Assembly (NCBI GenBank): GCA_038062675.1
Contig: JBBTWP010000003.1
Span: 129,378 to 193,377, forward strand
Direction: 5' to 3'
Length of the DNA: 64,000 nucleotides
Origin: Patescibacteria group bacterium
Lineage (GTDB): Bacteria > Patescibacteriota > Minisyncoccia > Phycocordibacterales > UBA1550
Shown: piece by piece, positions 9,945-56,554 of the stretch
Position numbering within the stretch: the first letter of the stretch is position 1
How the letters are laid out: each line of letters starts with the position of its first letter
Made by a program: the position numbers and the translations under genes
Notes under the pieces: generated by a model
What the model was told of the DNA's origin: nothing
The model's input: only the letters and a program-made list of their open reading frames with translations
Database searches by the model: none

Positions 9945-10075
9945 AATAAGCCACTATACACTATGTTCCCAGAAAAATCCAGCTTTTTGGAAAATACTTA
10001 TCATTTCCAGCCAAGATGGGATTTTACCCAGTTTGCATTCCCTGCAACTTATTGGGTATAATGACAGTCCACACG

Positions 10076-10084
10076 TTATCCACA
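10076..10084 (+). promoter_or_regulatory. Consensus DnaA box TTATCCACA upstream of dnaA.
   Basis: Exact 9-mer match. Confidence 0.6.
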
Positions 10085-10169
10085 GTTTAGAAACACTCTC
10101 ATCCCCGTGTGTTGGTTTCGTATGAGCATTAGAAAGACTATAATACAAAGAACAGCCTCTTACCCCTTT

Positions 10170-11525
10170 ATGCTCGACAATACACAACTTTGGGATCACA
10201 CACTGCGCGAACTCGGGAACGAGCTGTCTCGGGCAAATTTTAGTACATGGTTTAAAAACACTGCGATCACCAAACAAGAAGATGGTATCGTCACTATTGG
10301 TGTTCCCAATGAGTTTGTAAAAGATTGGTTGCAAAACAAATTCCACAAAATGATTCTGAAATCATTGCGTGGGCTTTCTGAACATGTCCGTAATATTGAA
10401 TATGTAATTTGCAAGATTGAAGAAAAATCTGATAAAAAACAAACTGAAAAAACTCCATCAAACCCAACATCTGAGCTTCCTTTGGAAAACCTTTATATCG
10501 ACCGTGCGGATGGGCTTAACCCTCGTTATGCATTTGATAGCTTTGTGATCGGAGCGTTTAATGAACTTGCGTACGCCGCATCTCAAGCAATCTTAAAAAA
10601 AGTGGGAAAGAATGTATACAACCCTTTATTTATTTATGGCAATACCGGACTTGGAAAAACTCATCTCATTCAAGCTATCGGCAATCAAGTAAAAAAACTA
10701 CACCCTGATAAAAAAGTATTTTACACGACATCAGAAAAATTTTCAGTGGACTACATCAGTTCAGTAGGGCAGGGGTCGAAGACAATGAATACTTTTAAAG
10801 ATAAGTACCGAAAATACGATCTCTTAATTATGGATGACATCCAATTCCTTTCAAATAAAGAAAAAACTCAAGAGGAACTCTTTCATATCTTTAACGAACT
10901 TTATAATAACAACAAACAAATTGTTTTTTCTTCCGATCGTCATCCAAACTATATTCCTGCACTTGAAGAACGCCTTAAATCTCGTTTTAATGCTGGAATG
11001 ACTGTAGATGTGCAGGAGCCTGAATATGAATCACGGCTCGCTATTTTACGGGCAAAAGCCGACAGTAGTAAATTCTTCCCTCCAGATGAAATTATTGAAT
11101 ATCTTGCTTCATCAATCCAAGGAAATGTTCGTGAATTGGAAGGGCTTTTAAATGGTGTTATTTGCCAATCACAGCTTAAAAATAGGCATTTAACACTTAA
11201 TGAGATTAAACCCTTTATAAAGAACACGTCAAAACCAAAAAAACTTCTTTCTGTGAAAGAAATAGTGAAGGTGGTGTGCGGTTTTTACAATATTGAAGAA
11301 GATCATGTGTATGAAAAAACAAGAAGGAAAGAAGTAGTGAAACCACGCCAAGTTGCAATGTTTATTTTGCGCGAGGATTTCAATATCTCATATCCAACTA
11401 TTGGACAAAAATTAGGTGGTCGTGATCACACCACTGTTATGCATTCGTATGATAAAATTAAAGTAGATATGAAGAATGATTTATCGCTTATGCAGGAGGT
11501 TGATCAGATCCGCGCAATGTTTTAA
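10170..11525 (+). CDS. dnaA: Chromosomal replication initiator DnaA. The ORF is open from 10107; the likely start is MLDNTQLW at 10170.
   Basis: AAA+ Walker A GNTGLGKTHL is present. A C-terminal DnaA box-binding HTH is present. Confidence 0.9.
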   Translation: MLDNTQLWDHTLRELGNELSRANFSTWFKNTAITKQEDGIVTIGVPNEFVKDWLQNKFHKMILKSLRGLSEHVRNIEYVICKIEEKSDKKQTEKTPSNPTSELPLENLYIDRADGLNPRYAFDSFVIGAFNELAYAASQAILKKVGKNVYNPLFIYGNTGLGKTHLIQAIGNQVKKLHPDKKVFYTTSEKFSVDYISSVGQGSKTMNTFKDKYRKYDLLIMDDIQFLSNKEKTQEELFHIFNELYNNNKQIVFSSDRHPNYIPALEERLKSRFNAGMTVDVQEPEYESRLAILRAKADSSKFFPPDEIIEYLASSIQGNVRELEGLLNGVICQSQLKNRHLTLNEIKPFIKNTSKPKKLLSVKEIVKVVCGFYNIEEDHVYEKTRRKEVVKPRQVAMFILREDFNISYPTIGQKLGGRDHTTVMHSYDKIKVDMKNDLSLMQEVDQIRAMF

Positions 11526-11538
11526 AACGTGGATTACT

Positions 11539-11713
11539 TGTGGATAGAGTTGTTGTTATGTGTTGATAGGTATGTGGAAAAGTTTACCTGAAACATATTC
11601 AAAAAAATATTATCCACAAAGAGGTGAGTGTTGTTCCTATAATAACAAAAAGTATGAGAGGGGATTTTACTAAGCAATTAAAACGGTTTAATAGAGTTAT
11701 CCACTTATCCACA
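11539..11713. promoter_or_regulatory. dnaA-dnaN intergenic DnaA-box cluster. This is the putative oriC / DUE region.
   Basis: tgtggatag at 11539-47 (reverse orientation, 1 mismatch). ttatccaca at 11610-18. ttatccact at 11697-705. ttatccaca at 11705-13. The surrounding spacer is AT-rich. Confidence 0.65.
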
Positions 11714-11761
11714 CCTATAGTAATAATAATAAGAATTTAAAGTAATAATTAATACAATACT

Positions 11762-12862
11762 ATGAACCTCTCTTGTAATCGTGAATTTCTTCAAAAATGT
11801 ATTTCATCTGCTGATCGAGTAACAGGAAAACATTTAAGCCTTCCTATTTTAGGAACTGTTTTTATTGCAACTGATCATAAAAAAATAATTATTCGTGCAA
11901 CAAATCTTGAAGTAGGTGTTGAGTTTCAAATTCCTGCTACTATAAAAACAGAAGGAAGTGTTGCACTTCCAGGAAGTCTTTTAGCAAATATTCTTTCAAG
12001 TATTACTGATGAACAAGAAATAAATATCAGTGTTTCTGGAAGTGTTGGGAAAATAACCACAAAAACAAAAAATCTTACGATTAAAGGTTTTTTACCTGAT
12101 GATTTCCCAACTATTCCTTTAGTTAATGAAGGTGATAAATTTACCCTTCCAGCAGTAAAATTTATACAAGGTGTTAAGTCAGTGGTAGGGAGTGCGGCTA
12201 TTTCTGATATAAAACCTGAAATCTCAAGCATTTATATTCATCAAGTAGGAGATTTTTTGATTTTTGCCGCAACAGACTCATTTCGTCTTTCTGAAAAGAA
12301 AATAAAATACCAAGGGACCGCGTTAACACATGGAATTATTATACCTGTAAAAAATATCCTTGAAGTGGTAAGAATTCTTGAACAAAACCAAGAGGATATT
12401 TCATTCACCGCGACAAAAAATCAATTTTCTTGCGCAGGAAAGTCTGTTTACATAACTTCCCGTGTTGTACAAGGGGTGTATCCTGATTACGAGCAAATCC
12501 TCCCTAAAGGGCACACCACAGAAGTGGTTATGTTGAAACAAGATCTTTTAAACACTTTAAAATTATCTACACTTTTTTCCGATAAATTCAATAAAATAAC
12601 ATTTACTATAAACCCTCAGCAAAAAAAGTGTATTATTGCGACAAAAAACACAGAAATTGGGGAAATTGAGTCAAATCTTACCGCAACTCTTTCTGGGGAA
12701 CCCATTGAACTTTCATTGAATGGAAAACACCTTTTTGATTCACTGGGGTCAATCGAAAAAGATAGTGTGATTATTCAGTTCAATGGAGCAGACAAACCGG
12801 CAGTTATTCGCGGGCTTGGTGATCCATCATTCACCAACCTCACAATGCCCCTTACACAATAA
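11762..12862 (+). CDS. dnaN: DNA polymerase III beta sliding clamp.
   Basis: N-terminal MNLSCNREFLQKCISSADRVTGKHLSLPILGTVFI. Length 366 aa. Position after dnaA. Confidence 0.9.
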   Translation: MNLSCNREFLQKCISSADRVTGKHLSLPILGTVFIATDHKKIIIRATNLEVGVEFQIPATIKTEGSVALPGSLLANILSSITDEQEINISVSGSVGKITTKTKNLTIKGFLPDDFPTIPLVNEGDKFTLPAVKFIQGVKSVVGSAAISDIKPEISSIYIHQVGDFLIFAATDSFRLSEKKIKYQGTALTHGIIIPVKNILEVVRILEQNQEDISFTATKNQFSCAGKSVYITSRVVQGVYPDYEQILPKGHTTEVVMLKQDLLNTLKLSTLFSDKFNKITFTINPQQKKCIIATKNTEIGEIESNLTATLSGEPIELSLNGKHLFDSLGSIEKDSVIIQFNGADKPAVIRGLGDPSFTNLTMPLTQ

Positions 12863-13116
12863 TGCTCCCTCTCGGTAATCTTCTCGCACGATTTAAAAAT
12901 CTCACCAACACAGAAAGGGTGCGAAAAGAGCTTATTTGTGAAGTTTTGAAAGAATTTAAGATTCCTCTTTTGAACACCCAAATATTTTTTTCAAAAAATA
13001 CCGTTTTTATAAAAGCACCACCTATTATAAAAACAGAAGTAGCACTTAAAAAAGGGGATATCCTCAAAAAAATCACCACAAATACAGGGTTGCGTCATAT
13101 TCAAGATATTTTTTAA
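12862..13116 (+). CDS. Small protein overlapping the dnaN stop (TAATG). Possibly a DUF721/DciA-like or S4-like RNA-binding protein.
   Basis: 1-nt overlap coupling with dnaN. No diagnostic motif recognised. Confidence 0.35.
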   Translation: MLPLGNLLARFKNLTNTERVRKELICEVLKEFKIPLLNTQIFFSKNTVFIKAPPIIKTEVALKKGDILKKITTNTGLRHIQDIF

Positions 13117-13132
13117 AATAGTTATACACGCG

Positions 13133-13141
13133 TTATCCACA
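13133..13141 (+). promoter_or_regulatory. Consensus DnaA box downstream of the dnaN operon.
   Basis: ttatccaca exact. A near-copy ttatacaca lies at 13122-30. Confidence 0.4.
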
Positions 13142-13297
13142 TACCACCCCTTGACAAACCTAATCTTTCAGATTACAATCTGTAATTAGATATACTATAA
13201 AGGAAATTTTCTTATATGGATTACAGAGTACCTTGTCAATTAATGATGGCATTGTGCCATCTCAACTCAATGTTTCAAGTGTTTCAGGAGGTTTACT

Positions 13298-14899
13298 ATG
13301 AAGACGCTCTCAAAGCTAATCTTTCTTTCCGTGGTTCTGGTGTTTGGTGTGACTGGCTGTAATGATGGGGGAGGAGATTCTCCGCCCCCTGTAAAACAGG
13401 AGCCGATTCCGGTTCCTGTGCCAACACCTGAACCTGCACCATTTCCATTACCGGCGCCTGAAAAACTCACTATTACCAAAACTAGTCTAGCAAACCGAGT
13501 TTCTTCCACGCTAGGCTTTCAAGAAGTAGGCAGATTTTCAATCTCAGCTCTCGGGGAAAAGAATTTTTCTTCCGAAGGGGAAATGATGCTTACTTTTGGT
13601 GGCACACTTGCAGGGAGTGTTGGGTATGTGAGGATTATGGATATTTCAAGAATAGGTTATGTGGAAGAACGTATTTCTTCTGAACACACCGGAGCTCCTG
13701 TGGAGAACAAGAAAGCCACTGTGGTTTTCTCGACCCCAATTGTTGGTTCAAAAATCATGGCAACCTGGTTGGTTGACGAAAAGTACACCTCAGACTTTTC
13801 TGTGGAAGTAGCCCTTGTGGGAGTTGATCCAATACCTCATGGTTCTTTTGCGGATTTGACTGTTACCATAGAAACAAAAGACCATATACAGTTTGGGAAC
13901 AATGTCGTTGTGGCAGAGTTTCCATTTCGTCTTGCTGTTGCTCGTATTGAAACAGGTAAGTTGTTTTTTGCAAAAGATTCTGAGATTGTACGAGAGGATG
14001 TGGAAACGGGAGTTAATACTGTTTTAACATTCTCGCCGCAGGTTGCGGAACGCAACATGGTGCCTTCGCGTGACGGTAATAAGCTTGCTTTCATTGCGGA
14101 TCTTTTGGGCGTAAATGTTGTTAATGTGGGAATAATGGACAGTAATGGCGATGGGTGTTTTGTAGTAGATGCAGCTGGATGTAATCAGGCGTATCAGATT
14201 GTGCAGGCTCATATCTGTTATGCCACAGAACGTATCGCTTTGTTTCCAAACATCAATATGGTTGCTTGTCCCGGGACGAATTTTAGGGATAATAGTCTTA
14301 AACGCGCGAGAAACATATTTCTCACGCAAATCTCCCCAAATCTTGGAGCGCAACTTACCAATGATGTGTATGAGGACTTTGAGTCTGTTGTTTCTGCTGA
14401 TGGCAAGATGACCTACTTTCTTTCCTGTCGCCCGTTTGATAAGCCGGAAGCTCCTTTTGTTGAATACGTAGGAGGTTGTGGTATTTTTAAACGGGAAATT
14501 ATTGATTTGGATAAATTAGTTTTTGGTCCAATTCAATATGTGGTGGGAAGGGGGGATTGGAAGTTTGGCAGTGGAGGTGATTCACTTTCCGGTATTTCTC
14601 TGTCTCCTGATGACAAACAGTTAGTATTTTCTCGCGACATCGGAACAAGGAACTTTTTTGGGTCGATGGCAACGGTAAGTATTGTAAACACTGACGGAAC
14701 GGTACTTAAGGAGATTGGTGAAGGATTTCATCCGTACTGGGTCACTGATGGAAGGATTCTCTACAAAAAGAAATCTTCTCTTTTTGGCAGAGAAATTATC
14801 CTCAGTGATTCCGACGGAAGTAATCCGCGTGTTGTTTTGAAGTTGAAAGATGGAATTTCTGGTCAGGAATCGGCAACAAGTGTAACGTTTATCCCTTAA
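13298..14899 (+). CDS. Lipoprotein with a Pro-rich linker and a beta-propeller-like C-terminal domain.
   Basis: Signal peptide with lipobox VTGC. PEPAPFPLPAPE linker. RBS GGAGG upstream. Confidence 0.55.
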   Translation: MKTLSKLIFLSVVLVFGVTGCNDGGGDSPPPVKQEPIPVPVPTPEPAPFPLPAPEKLTITKTSLANRVSSTLGFQEVGRFSISALGEKNFSSEGEMMLTFGGTLAGSVGYVRIMDISRIGYVEERISSEHTGAPVENKKATVVFSTPIVGSKIMATWLVDEKYTSDFSVEVALVGVDPIPHGSFADLTVTIETKDHIQFGNNVVVAEFPFRLAVARIETGKLFFAKDSEIVREDVETGVNTVLTFSPQVAERNMVPSRDGNKLAFIADLLGVNVVNVGIMDSNGDGCFVVDAAGCNQAYQIVQAHICYATERIALFPNINMVACPGTNFRDNSLKRARNIFLTQISPNLGAQLTNDVYEDFESVVSADGKMTYFLSCRPFDKPEAPFVEYVGGCGIFKREIIDLDKLVFGPIQYVVGRGDWKFGSGGDSLSGISLSPDDKQLVFSRDIGTRNFFGSMATVSIVNTDGTVLKEIGEGFHPYWVTDGRILYKKKSSLFGREIILSDSDGSNPRVVLKLKDGISGQESATSVTFIP

Positions 14900-14920
14900 T
14901 TTTGTACATTTGGTTTATTT

Positions 14921-14957
14921 AAAGGGTCTTGCTTCACAGCGAGACCCTTTTTTTTTG
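14921..14957 (+). terminator. Intrinsic terminator.
   Basis: agggtcttgc-ttcaca-gcgagaccct hairpin followed by T9. Confidence 0.65.
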
Positions 14958-14970
14958 CCCACATTCCCAC

Positions 14971-14979
14971 TTATCCACA
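14971..14979 (+). promoter_or_regulatory. Isolated consensus DnaA box upstream of the Gly-rich protein gene.
   Basis: ttatccaca exact. Confidence 0.35.
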
Positions 14980-15054
14980 CCTCCACATAGTATTCACTTC
15001 CCCACACTGATATACTAAGGAAGTATTATCAAACCAACCATCATTTATTATATT

Positions 15055-54799: not shown

Positions 54800-55510
54800 A
54801 TGCTGTACCTTATTCATGGTAGCGATAGAGCAAAAGGGCGCACACAGTTTCAGGCACTCAAAAAGAAATTCTTAGCAGAAGGGTGTGAGGTGCGCGTTGT
54901 GGCAGAGGGGGAGGCAACCGATGGGTTCTTGGATACGGGGGCGGTATCTCGCGGTCTTTTTGGTGAGACGACATTATTTACCTTTGACGGTGTTCTCGAG
55001 AAAAAAGGAGAACAAGAAATATTTACTGCGCATGCAAAAGACCTTGCGCAGTCATCTAATCATTTTTTAATATTTGAACCGACGTTCGAAAAGGAATCGA
55101 TGGGCGTACTTTCAAAACATGCGACCGAAATATTTGAGTATGTAGGAAAGAAAGTTGATACACGCCCCGCGTTCAATATTTTTTCATTGGGTGATGCGCT
55201 CGGCGTACGTAAAAAGAAAGATTTGTGGGTTTTGTATCAACAGGCGATTGCGGCGGGACTTGCGCCAGAAGAACTTTGCGGGACGCTCTTTTGGCAGGTA
55301 AAAAATATGGCGCTCGTGAAGGGGGCAAAGTCGGGAGATGACTGCGGACTTAAACCTTTTGTTGCGCAAAAAGCGCGAGGCTTTGCAAAGAATTACACAC
55401 CGACAGAAATCGTGAATCTTGCGCGTGCGCTCGCAGGGATTTTTCATGAAGACCACCGTGGGGGAGAGCCGATGGGTATTGGGCTCGAAAAATTTATACT
55501 GAGTTTGTAG
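54800..55510 (+). CDS. holA: DNA polymerase III delta subunit-like (HolA), short.
   Basis: NIFSLGDALGVRKKKDLWVLYQQAIAAGLAPE resembles the delta C-terminal region. Confidence 0.5.
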   Translation: MLYLIHGSDRAKGRTQFQALKKKFLAEGCEVRVVAEGEATDGFLDTGAVSRGLFGETTLFTFDGVLEKKGEQEIFTAHAKDLAQSSNHFLIFEPTFEKESMGVLSKHATEIFEYVGKKVDTRPAFNIFSLGDALGVRKKKDLWVLYQQAIAAGLAPEELCGTLFWQVKNMALVKGAKSGDDCGLKPFVAQKARGFAKNYTPTEIVNLARALAGIFHEDHRGGEPMGIGLEKFILSL

Positions 55511-55542: not shown

Positions 55543-55572
55543 AAAAAAAGCCCAAAATGAGGGGCTTTTTTT
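55543..55572 (+). terminator. Intrinsic terminator.
   Basis: aaaagccc-aaaatga-ggggcttttttt. Confidence 0.6.
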
Positions 55573-55766
55573 CTGCGTGTTCACGAAAGAACTTATTTTA
55601 TTTTTCTCTGCGAGAAACGAAGGTGCAATTGATGATAGTGAGTGGGGAAGTCAGAGGTGATCAGACTCTAAAATCTTACTCGTCATCGGCTACCTGTTTT
55701 CATTATACTCCACACATAGAGATTCGCAAGAGAAATGGTGTGGATAACTGGAAGTGCATATCGTCT

Positions 55767-56334
55767 GGCTCGTGTTTTTTGATTACAAAAAAGCACTGCG
55801 CCTTGCACACACGTTAAGAAAACCTCCCGCAGGGGAGGTTTTCTTAACGTGTGGTCACGGATAATTTTCTCGTCGTCACTCGAAAATTTCCGCGACCCCG
55901 CCTCACTACCTCGTTTTGTGGTCAGGAATAATTTTGTTTTCGTCACGTGTGGTCACGAATCACTAAGCATTTTTTCGTTTCACTCAAAACTGCAAAGTGT
56001 TCGCGAAGCTTTGCACTTGATCTTCTAACTCGCTTCACTCGTAAGAAGATCTACGCCCGGCTCGTGGTTTTTGATTACAAAAACATCACTGCGCCTTGCA
56101 CAAACTAAAAATCTGCCACAGGGCAGATTTTCTTAACGTTTGTGCACCCAGTAGGGGACGGTCACGAGTTACTAAGTCGCTTCGCTCCTAAGTACTCGCG
56201 ACCCCGGCTCGCACGTCGCAGGGCGACATGGCTCCGCCTTTCGATCCCCAGAGCAAGCCAAGCAGTTGGCTTGCTCTGGGTGCACCAAATAAAAAAACAC
56301 GGAAAGAATCCGTGTTTTTTTATTTGGTGCACCC
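55767..56334. repeat. Degenerate roughly 290-bp tandem repeat zone next to tRNA-Lys. Each unit carries a hairpin with compensatory changes (gttaagaaaacctccc/gggaggttttcttaac vs aaaatctgcc/ggcagatttt). A direct copy of the tRNA 3' end lies at 56142-56158. A 12-bp-stem hairpin lies at 56250-56277. A 57-bp perfect palindrome (56278-56334) embeds the tRNA acceptor 3' end.
   Basis: Direct reading. The left and right 25-nt arms of the palindrome are exact reverse complements. Confidence 0.7.
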
Positions 56335-56400
56335 AGTAGGGATCGAACCTACGACCGTTTGCTTAAAAGGCAACTGCTCTACCAGCTGAGCTATGGGTGC
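56325..56400 (-). tRNA. tRNA-Lys (anticodon UUU).
   Basis: Cloverleaf GCACCCA…TGGGTGC acceptor. T-loop TTCGATC. Anticodon loop CTTTTAA. CCA encoded. Confidence 0.85.
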
Positions 56401-56554
56401 ATATATTTAATTTTCAAACTTTTTACGTTACTTGTTACTCCTCGCTGTTATCTATCAAAACAGCTATGGGTGCATGCTGTGTGCTTGGGTAACGACAAAA
56501 TACTACCACAAAACAAGACTTTTGCAATTCAAACTAGAATGTAGACGTTTTGAC

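Follow-up and report, generated by a model that had tools for sequence, protein, structure and literature searches.

Tandem hairpin-rich modules that copy the tail of a tRNA-Lys gene in a Patescibacteria group bacterium

RNAs that resemble transfer RNA (tRNA) are known as the plant mitochondrial t-elements, the mascRNA of MALAT1 and the bacterial YrlA, and folded single-strand recombination sites are known as attC of integrons and attP(+) of the CTX phage. The direct repeat of a tRNA 3′ segment was reportedly put forward by Williams in 2002 as a signature of integration at tRNA genes. Here, we analyze a 64,000-nt stretch of a Patescibacteria group bacterium (hereafter the window; GCA_038062675.1, contig JBBTWP010000003.1, positions 129,378 to 193,377), in which a tRNA-Lys(UUU) gene is followed on its 3′ side by an array of hairpins and of partial copies of the tRNA itself. 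As read from its sequence, this array is made up of three tandem copies of a conserved, hairpin-rich ‘tRNA-tail module’ without an open reading frame (ORF), one intact and two decayed. The part copied is the last ~20 nt of tRNA-Lys, the tail. In tRNA sense, a module opens with a two-way intrinsic terminator, or in its place a short loop, and continues with an anti-tail, an inner domain of covarying hairpins whose junctions are conserved and rich in purines, and a direct copy of the tail. The anti-tail matches, as reverse complement, tRNA positions 54-73 and a few bases of the trailer and is split exactly at the acceptor/T-stem junction by a 22-nt hairpin, P1a, so that it reads acceptor 5′-strand copy, AG, P1a, CG, T-stem 5′ copy and AAUCGAA, the complement of the T loop. 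The tail copy covers tRNA positions ~57-73, up to the discriminator, with some trailer bases behind it. Two candidate partners exist for the anti-tail: pairing with the real tail gives a palindrome of 61 nt, pairing with the tail copy closes the module. We found no description of such a module in the literature searched, the closest paper being one on tRNA fragments derived from attachment (att) sites (PMC9897764), and the family, widespread behind certain tRNA genes of the Candidate Phyla Radiation (CPR), is apparently undescribed.

Att-derived tRNA fragments bound inserts of 9-121 kb (van der Gulik et al. 2023, PMC9897764). Like these products of integrases, the modules repeat the tRNA 3′ segment in direct orientation behind an intact tRNA, with a start in the T loop and a tandem build-up at one tRNA; unlike them, they measure 126-230 nt, are devoid of integrase and cargo, and contain an inverted tail copy and covarying hairpins, and while their layout is kept in distant relatives, a phage or plasmid counterpart was not found. 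With t-elements, mascRNA and YrlA they have in common the stacking of an acceptor-like on a T-like stem, a D-arm-like hairpin and a presumed location near or within a longer transcript, an analogy which suggests that tRNA enzymes may be used. The module stems differ from those of these RNAs in being exact copies of the stems of the neighboring tRNA, a large inner domain replaces the T loop, the stacked helix comprises 16 bp, and Rfam returned no match to tRNA, YrlA or any other family. Bidirectional Rho-independent terminators resemble the module in their GC-rich hairpin between an A tract and a T tract, predicted here between the convergent tRNA-Lys and the side of the holA-like gene and again at two further putative terminators of the array (T2 and T3). 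In contrast to such terminators, the stem reaches 12 nt into the tRNA and, in full modules, on through the T stem and T loop, and the tail/anti-tail hairpin lacks a U tract in several related loci (L057, L066 and L105). Finally, conservation of structure above sequence, a strand bias, tandem arrays at one site and an inverted repeat that rebuilds the target copy recall attC and attP(+), whereas an integron integrase, an Xer context, the R/L box consensus and ORF cassettes are missing from the modules and the site is a tRNA gene.

Anatomy of the array

A preliminary description of this locus had noted a perfect palindrome of 57 bp at the tRNA 3′ end, a neighboring hairpin with a 12-bp stem and a 17-nt copy of the tRNA tail 165 bp away. 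All three are present, with corrected dimensions (Table 1). The palindrome is perfect but longer, 61 nt (28+5+28), its arms (56276-56303 and 56309-56336) enclosing a 5-nt loop and the right arm taking in the final 12 nt of the tRNA with the encoded CCA; in 64 kb, chance would fall far short of an inverted repeat that is perfect over 28 nt. Two relatives, L001 and L048, keep the palindrome with a different base at a variable acceptor position (T in the window, C in L001, G in L048), altered in both arms. The adjoining hairpin (arms 56247-56261 and 56266-56280) has a perfect 15-bp stem and shares CTGGG with the palindrome. The tail copy GTGCACCCAGTAGGG at 56142-56156 is identical to 56327-56341 in 15 of 15 positions (17 nt with one mismatch), with 185 nt from start to start and 168 nt in between. 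No ORF with a Pfam match lies in these 168 nt, and the small ORFs across the array had zero Pfam matches.

Table 1. Coordinates of the features at the tRNA-Lys locus, numbered as in the window.
Feature	Position	Strand	Basis
tRNA-Lys(UUU), encoded CCA	56325-56400	-	ARAGORN; Rfam tRNA model, 70.4 bits
Predicted tRNA-Lys promoter: TTGCAA (56527-56522), 16-nt spacer, TG-extended TAGTAT (56505-56500)	56500-56527	-	sequence inspection
tRNA 5′-end copy AGCTATGGGTGCAT, 14 nt (acceptor 5′ strand and start of D arm), then a decayed stretch resembling a D arm	56462-56475	-	matches 56389-56402
Perfect palindrome, 61 nt (28+5+28): tRNA tail 56325-56336, terminator T1, acceptor part of anti-tail 56276-56288	56276-56336	.	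inverted repeat, 100% complementary
Terminator T1 core: A7, ACACGGA, loop AAGAA, TCCGTGT, T7	56290-56322	.	sequence inspection; predicted intrinsic terminator, both strands
Module 3, complete, including terminator T1	56142-56324	-	
Module 3, 5′ half in tRNA sense: acceptor 5′-strand copy (Y), AG, 22-nt hairpin P1a, T-stem 5′ copy and AUCGAA (X)	56236-56289	-	covariance model R1
Module 3, inner domain: H3 56160-56203 (GGTCACG...CGCGACC), junction CCGGCTCG 56204-56211, H4 56212-56230, junction GCTCCGCCT 56231-56239	56160-56239	-	
Distal tail copy ‘a’ (tRNA positions ~59-73 and trailer), pairs with anti-tail and closes module 3	56142-56158	-	repeat search and fold
Terminator T2 (AAAATCTGCC ACAG GGCAGATTTT), flanked by short anti-tail CACAAAC and partner GTTTGTG	56108-56131	.	
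Module 2, older, partly decayed: core CCCGGCTCG 56056-64, H4 56065-56085, TCACTGCGCCTTG, hairpin 56019-56051, third GGTCACG-type hairpin 55951-56007	55951-56107	-	nhmmer
Module 1, oldest, without tail copy: core GGCTCG, H4, CTGCGCCTTG (55767-55803), palindromic terminator T3 55801-55860, H3 55853-55897	55767-55950	-	

The preliminary description had also considered an unusual termination or processing structure, and this comes closer to what we find: the center of the palindrome has the predicted features of a canonical two-way terminator hairpin (T1), and the logic of tail and anti-tail suggests tRNA mimicry. T1 was not listed by the terminator scan because its stem continues through the T tract. 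The trailer-terminator layout of the T2 type stands directly behind the tRNA in six other loci (L077, L117, L107, L035, L010 and L108). In others, such as L057, L059, L066, L080 and L105, tRNA and module are not separated by a terminator.

In module 3, the elements of the 5′ half lie, in plus-strand coordinates, at 56240-56249 (X, TTCGATCCCC), 56250-56276 (P1a) and 56277-56288 (Y), and the two junctions of its inner domain, CCGGCTCG and GCTCCGCCT, form a covarying helix of 3 bp. Module 2, with its short anti-tail, T2 and a core, spans about 55951-56158; nhmmer matched it to L059 (90% identity over 75 nt), L117, L066, L107 and L054, and it is common to the window and L001. Within module 1, a 29-nt stretch (55917-55945) is identical to L077. 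Viewed as repeats, the array contains two degenerate tandem units of ~290 nt, with starts near 55771 and 56063 and an identity of ~75-80% over the first ~160 nt. These units had been noted before, together with compensating substitutions in their hairpins, and both observations hold: nhmmer aligns unit with unit at E=3e-14, and the units differ by CCTCCC/GGGAGG versus TCTGCC/GGCAGA and, within the frame GGTCACG...CGCGACC, by GGATAATTTTC/GAAAATTTCC versus GAGTTACTAAG/CTAAGTACTC. Tandem Repeats Finder called no array in the window because the units are too diverged. Both the frame GGTCACG...CGCGACC and CACTGCGCCTTGCACA were found at this locus alone within the window.

Recurrence behind tRNA genes, covariation and strand

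A scan of a genome collection with the holA-like protein gave at least three syntenic loci and a metagenome scan with the body of tRNA-Lys gave at least 120; all module frequencies reported here refer to this sample and are not totals. A covariance model (R1) built from 23 anti-tail regions has one significant match in the window, over the 5′ half of module 3 (55.2 bits, E=2.8e-12), and 31 matches in ~709 kb of related loci, of which 30 are located downstream of a tRNA on the same strand, at distances of 11-39 nt for a first and 153-277 nt for a second module. The carriers in the roughly 30 metagenomic loci with the module, in which it always lies in tRNA sense, are tRNA-Lys(UUU), tRNA-Arg(GCG) and tRNA-Leu(UAG). 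A second module type, with the covarying helices P3 and P4, GUACUG as a motif and a UGUAA-loop hairpin, was counted 11 times in 773 kb, every time in tRNA sense and behind a tRNA. Repeats of the tail comparable to that of the window (≤2 mismatches in 16) are present in 18 of the 101 tRNA-Lys loci listed, although a few of these are tandem tRNA genes. The sole R1 match without a same-strand upstream tRNA in the available sequence is that in L025 (13304-13358, minus strand); its anti-tail, complementary to TTCGAATCCCTC...CCCTCCGCA, would suit another tRNA-like 3′ end beyond the edge of the locus, for which tmRNA (transfer-messenger RNA) is a guess only.

The copies follow the tRNA beside which they stand. 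Leu modules have ACTTGAA and the Leu acceptor sequence where Lys modules have AATCGAA, and across 34 modules the mean mismatch of the anti-tail is 1.6 against its own tRNA compared with 2.85 against the others; an exact 8-mer complement to the own tRNA was found in 11/34, and in 18/34 no tRNA of any other locus was equally good.

The preliminary description had named an identical architecture in all relatives as the outcome that would refute a scar; comparison with relatives shows an architecture that is conserved in kind, with variation in copy number and type. The window and L001 have a common two-unit layout at 60% HolA identity, L048 (65%) has the proximal anti-tail/terminator unit, and L059 has the distal unit as in the window together with a different proximal module. 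The number of modules ranges from 0 to 3, the module type differs between lineages and L072 has no module. The tRNA-Lys gene stands between holA and doxX in either orientation depending on the lineage, and the modules are always on its 3′ side. One orientation is seen in L005, L041, L047, L049/L091, L056, L070, L099, L003, L010 and L117, the opposite one in the window, L001, L048, L057, L077 and L105. In L002, L041 and L053, the tRNA is flanked by inverted copies of the GGATAATTTTC-type hairpin, a possible means of such inversions.

The helices covary. In P1a, eight of nine pairs show compensatory changes across 23 sequences. The inner domain of the window type consists of the hairpins H3 and H4 and the conserved junctions AGGCGGAGC and CGAGCCGG, which form the 3-bp covarying helix; in the six sequences of this type, 98.1% of the cells are paired, compared with 77% in shuffled and 33-41% in slid-partner controls, 17 of 28 pairs are altered on both sides, and none of 500 shuffles reached the observed values. 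One G.U pair of H3 is invariant in 6/6 sequences when read in tRNA sense.

With respect to strand, all 12 modules compared fold better in tRNA sense, by 8-35 kcal/mol, and G.U pairs number 67 in tRNA sense versus 30 on the opposite strand. The predicted minus-strand fold of 56140-56291, with the closing acceptor-like and T-like helices and the side hairpin, reaches -85.2 kcal/mol (z=-7.1), whereas the plus-strand fold of the window module reaches -71.3 kcal/mol (z=-5.4). As modeled, the strand evidence points to the tRNA sense. Against Rfam 15, only the tRNA passed the threshold, everything else being far below it and hairpin-like noise such as miRNA precursor models.

Competing explanations for the modules

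In our view, the chance is about one in two (probability roughly 0.5) that the modules represent a tRNA-linked structured RNA that is closed by a tRNA-like acceptor/T helix and amplified via recombination between tail copies, with the proximal palindrome doubling as a two-way terminator. The anti-tail, paired with the real tail, would form in the 61-nt palindrome an intrinsic terminator with an extended stem between the tRNA and convergent transcription. With the tail copy as its partner, the anti-tail would form an acceptor/T-like helix of 16 bp with a D-arm-like side hairpin, a tRNA-shaped scaffold for the inner domain, which may have a cellular function. The module RNA would be made in the direction of the tRNA, by co-transcription or read-through, and its tRNA-like ends might let tRNA-processing enzymes excise it. 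Unequal recombination between tail copies could expand and contract the arrays, while concerted evolution would hold tail and anti-tail identical to the adjacent tRNA. In favor of this reading are the recurrence of the R1 matches and their exclusive position behind tRNAs, anti-tails that track the local tRNA, the covariation, the strand asymmetry, the layout common to the window and L001 at 60% HolA identity, and modules that accompany the tRNA in either orientation.

Several observations speak against this structured-RNA reading. Its main weakness is that, in the window and for most ‘type 1’ loci, a canonical terminator precedes the inner domains in tRNA sense; their transcription needs read-through, and a promoter for them was not found. 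The acceptor/T helix has 16 bp compared with 12 bp in a tRNA, and a T-loop motif is absent from the modules in tRNA sense, where the inner domain takes its place, so that recognition by RNase P or RNase Z is speculative. ARAGORN calls neither a tRNA nor a tmRNA in the modules. The hairpin P1a has no strand bias, and the case for the strand consists of thermodynamics and G.U counts. A conserved A.C mismatch on the plus strand could itself be functional. The alignment of the window-type inner domain comprises six sequences only. Finally, modules are dispensable, as L072, which is 86-90% identical to L077, has an inverted tRNA and no module.

The best of the alternatives, though unlikely, is a miniature mobile cassette acting at the DNA level, non-autonomous and put into the T loop or 3′ end of the tRNA by a recombinase supplied in trans, with duplication of ~20 nt of the tail; the recombinase might act on folded single strands, as at integron attC or the CTX-phage sites. 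Such a cassette would account for tail repeats that begin inside the T loop, like integrase sites of the T-loop type, for ‘empty’ and ‘filled’ states of the same site, as with the window and L059, in which like distal units go with different proximal modules, for a copy number between 0 and 3 including the empty L072, and for identical module types at Lys, Arg and Leu tRNAs, and a folded-DNA substrate would covary too. However, a recombinase gene is near none of the loci examined and the arrays are bounded by core genes. A moving element would import foreign tails, but the tails always fit the local tRNA, and the two-unit layout must be old because it is common to the window and L001 at 60% HolA identity. 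Copies away from tRNAs are absent from the window and the loci scanned with R1, and the better-folding strand in the window is not the lagging-strand template.

A further possibility, which we rate below the cassette, is that the modules are a new kind of selfish or accessory ORF-less unit living on tRNA 3′ ends, the anti-tail of which is re-templated from whichever tRNA stands in front of it, for example by copying primed from the tRNA tail or through T-loop recombination that is structure-specific. Such a unit would spread among tRNA-Lys, tRNA-Arg and tRNA-Leu, and the processing enzymes of the host would release it as a tRNA-shaped RNA.

We are slightly more doubtful that the modules are small RNA genes of the plus strand, each directed at the tRNA and terminated by the shared two-way terminator, with a genuine T-loop sequence UUCGAUY and a tRNA-like ...UGGGUGCACCA 3′ end. 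A canonical terminator does lie directly behind each core in plus sense, and the anti-tail then reads as T loop, T-stem 3′ strand, acceptor 3′ strand and ACCA. In the T loop, TTC is invariant though unneeded for pairing with the tail copy, and the plus-strand fold is significant as well (z=-5.4). But this strand gives the poorer fold in 12/12 modules and turns the invariant G.U into an A.C mismatch, the loops become pyrimidine-rich, the 22-nt hairpin between T stem and acceptor 3′ strand has no counterpart in a tRNA, and a conserved plus-strand promoter was not found.

Less probable again is a neutral by-product, in which snap-back or template-switch repair would have lengthened terminator palindromes into the tRNA, alongside partial tandem duplicates of the tRNA gene that are decaying, termination being the only function. 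Palindrome correction predicts perfect palindrome arms such as those observed, tandem tRNA genes do occur, as do partial 5′ copies with the period of a tRNA, and the distal copies are decayed. Yet unpaired junctions are conserved (GAA, AGGCGGAGC, CGAGCCGG, GUACUG and UGUAA), the geometry is constant with the 22-nt hairpin exactly at the acceptor/T junction, compensatory changes are many across lineages with HolA only ~30% identical, and a compact genome retains a spacer of 815 nt.

The preliminary description had favored repeated integration and excision, by which the tail copies would be attR-type fragments of phages or islands integrated at tRNA-Lys and later deleted; a tRNA 3′ segment in direct repeat is what textbooks describe for such integration, and repeats of this kind recur among the listed metagenomic loci, but this reading is largely refuted by the 126-230 nt between repeats without ORF or Pfam match, by the want of any integrase, cargo or match to IMG/VR, phages or plasmids, by an inverted tail copy that integrase recombination does not yield, by ordered sub-elements with compensatory changes that recur in dozens of lineages, covarying inner parts included, and by a layout kept in distant relatives (60-65% HolA identity). 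In keeping with this, att-like sequences, sought as proposed, were confined to the locus: the tail at ≤2 mismatches has two matches only within the 64-kb window, the 18-mer GTGCACCCAGTAGGGRWC has 0 matches in IMG/VR, the module motifs gave none or only chance matches there, and blastn versus phages and plasmids gave no match.

The tiny genomes of CPR bacteria or Patescibacteria have little spare DNA, and many of them keep 150-800 nt of structured and conserved non-coding sequence at the 3′ ends of specific tRNAs. If the modules are RNAs, as the structured-RNA reading holds, they would constitute an undescribed class of tRNA-linked non-coding RNA with built-in tRNA mimicry, which might bear on tRNA maturation, termination and RNA turnover; if they are cassettes at the DNA level, they would be a new, minimal use of tRNA genes as landing sites. 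In the annotation of CPR genomes, the tail copies can be mistaken for att sites of prophages or islands or for tRNA pseudogenes.

The tRNA-Lys gene, its surroundings and other features of the window

The non-coding stretch 3′ of tRNA-Lys, 815 nt long, is bounded by a holA-like gene (54800-55510, plus strand). The neighboring genes are core genes (polA, the holA-like gene, doxX, a spoU methylase gene and ruvA), and the genome is of the Parcubacteria type; in the scan with the holA-like protein, the closest species genome among the matches listed was Parcubacteria GW2011_GWA1_47_8. The predicted promoter of tRNA-Lys scores under the threshold of the promoter scan, and its pattern TTGMAA-N16-TAnTAT, mostly with a TG-extended -10 element, is kept ~95-110 nt upstream of tRNA-Lys in L059, L072 and L077.

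The long 5′ leader of tRNA-Lys, ~90 nt in the window, holds a decayed copy of the tRNA 5′ end. This 14-nt copy had been reported 62 bp upstream of the gene and is indeed there, at a distance of 61 nt. Among the matches listed, 5′ copies exist in 15 of 103 tRNA-Lys loci, the leader-sized ones at ~66-150 nt and several of them at ~73-80 nt. Most simply, the copy is the decayed first third of a tRNA, the remnant of a tandem tRNA duplicate. Four tandem tRNA genes with a spacing of 76 nt are present in L102, and tandem units of ~75 nt stand upstream of tRNA-Lys in L005 and L025; a common AATAT motif precedes each of these units, which begin with the first 12-16 nt of the tRNA. In L079, a second tRNA-Lys(UUU)-like sequence follows ~200 nt downstream of tRNA-Lys and has an insert of ~70 nt just past its anticodon loop; the insert contains GTCCCGAC-type repeats, and ARAGORN made no call for this interrupted sequence.

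Other candidates for the locus were rejected. Neither ARAGORN nor Rfam found a hidden plus-strand tRNA, tmRNA or permuted tmRNA (TTCGATCCCC...TGGGTGCACCA), and a G3.U70 pair is lacking. RNase P RNA, the RNA of the signal recognition particle, 6S RNA, YrlA and the known self-cleaving ribozymes had no Rfam match here, and mapping by hand onto the core of the hammerhead ribozyme gave no fit. A dispersed repeat, such as a repetitive extragenic palindrome or a miniature inverted-repeat transposable element, does not agree with one R1 match in 64 kb and with 30/31 matches elsewhere adjoining tRNAs.

Beyond the array, a perfect DnaA box, TTATCCACA, is located at 55739-55747 within a 13-mer, GGTGTGGATAACT, that is also found in L001, and CTGTGGATAACTTTTT is common to L077 and L072. 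The DnaA box adjoins a sigma70-like promoter (TTGCGA-16-TATAAT, 55729-55702, minus strand) directed at a two-way terminator at 55545-55572. This arrangement suggests a candidate small RNA of ~130-150 nt on the minus strand (55545-55747), convergent with the end of holA and possibly regulated by DnaA, for which Rfam gave no match. A replication origin or parS at the tRNA-Lys locus was considered and rejected, as the DnaA-box cluster and the GC-skew minimum are at 10-15 kb instead. Perfect or near-perfect DnaA boxes cluster there at 10076, 11539-11713, 13133 and 14971, the cumulative GC skew has its minimum near 10 kb and the GC content falls to 35%, which makes an origin at ~10000-15000 of the window probable; with an origin in this position, tRNA-Lys would be transcribed head-on to replication.

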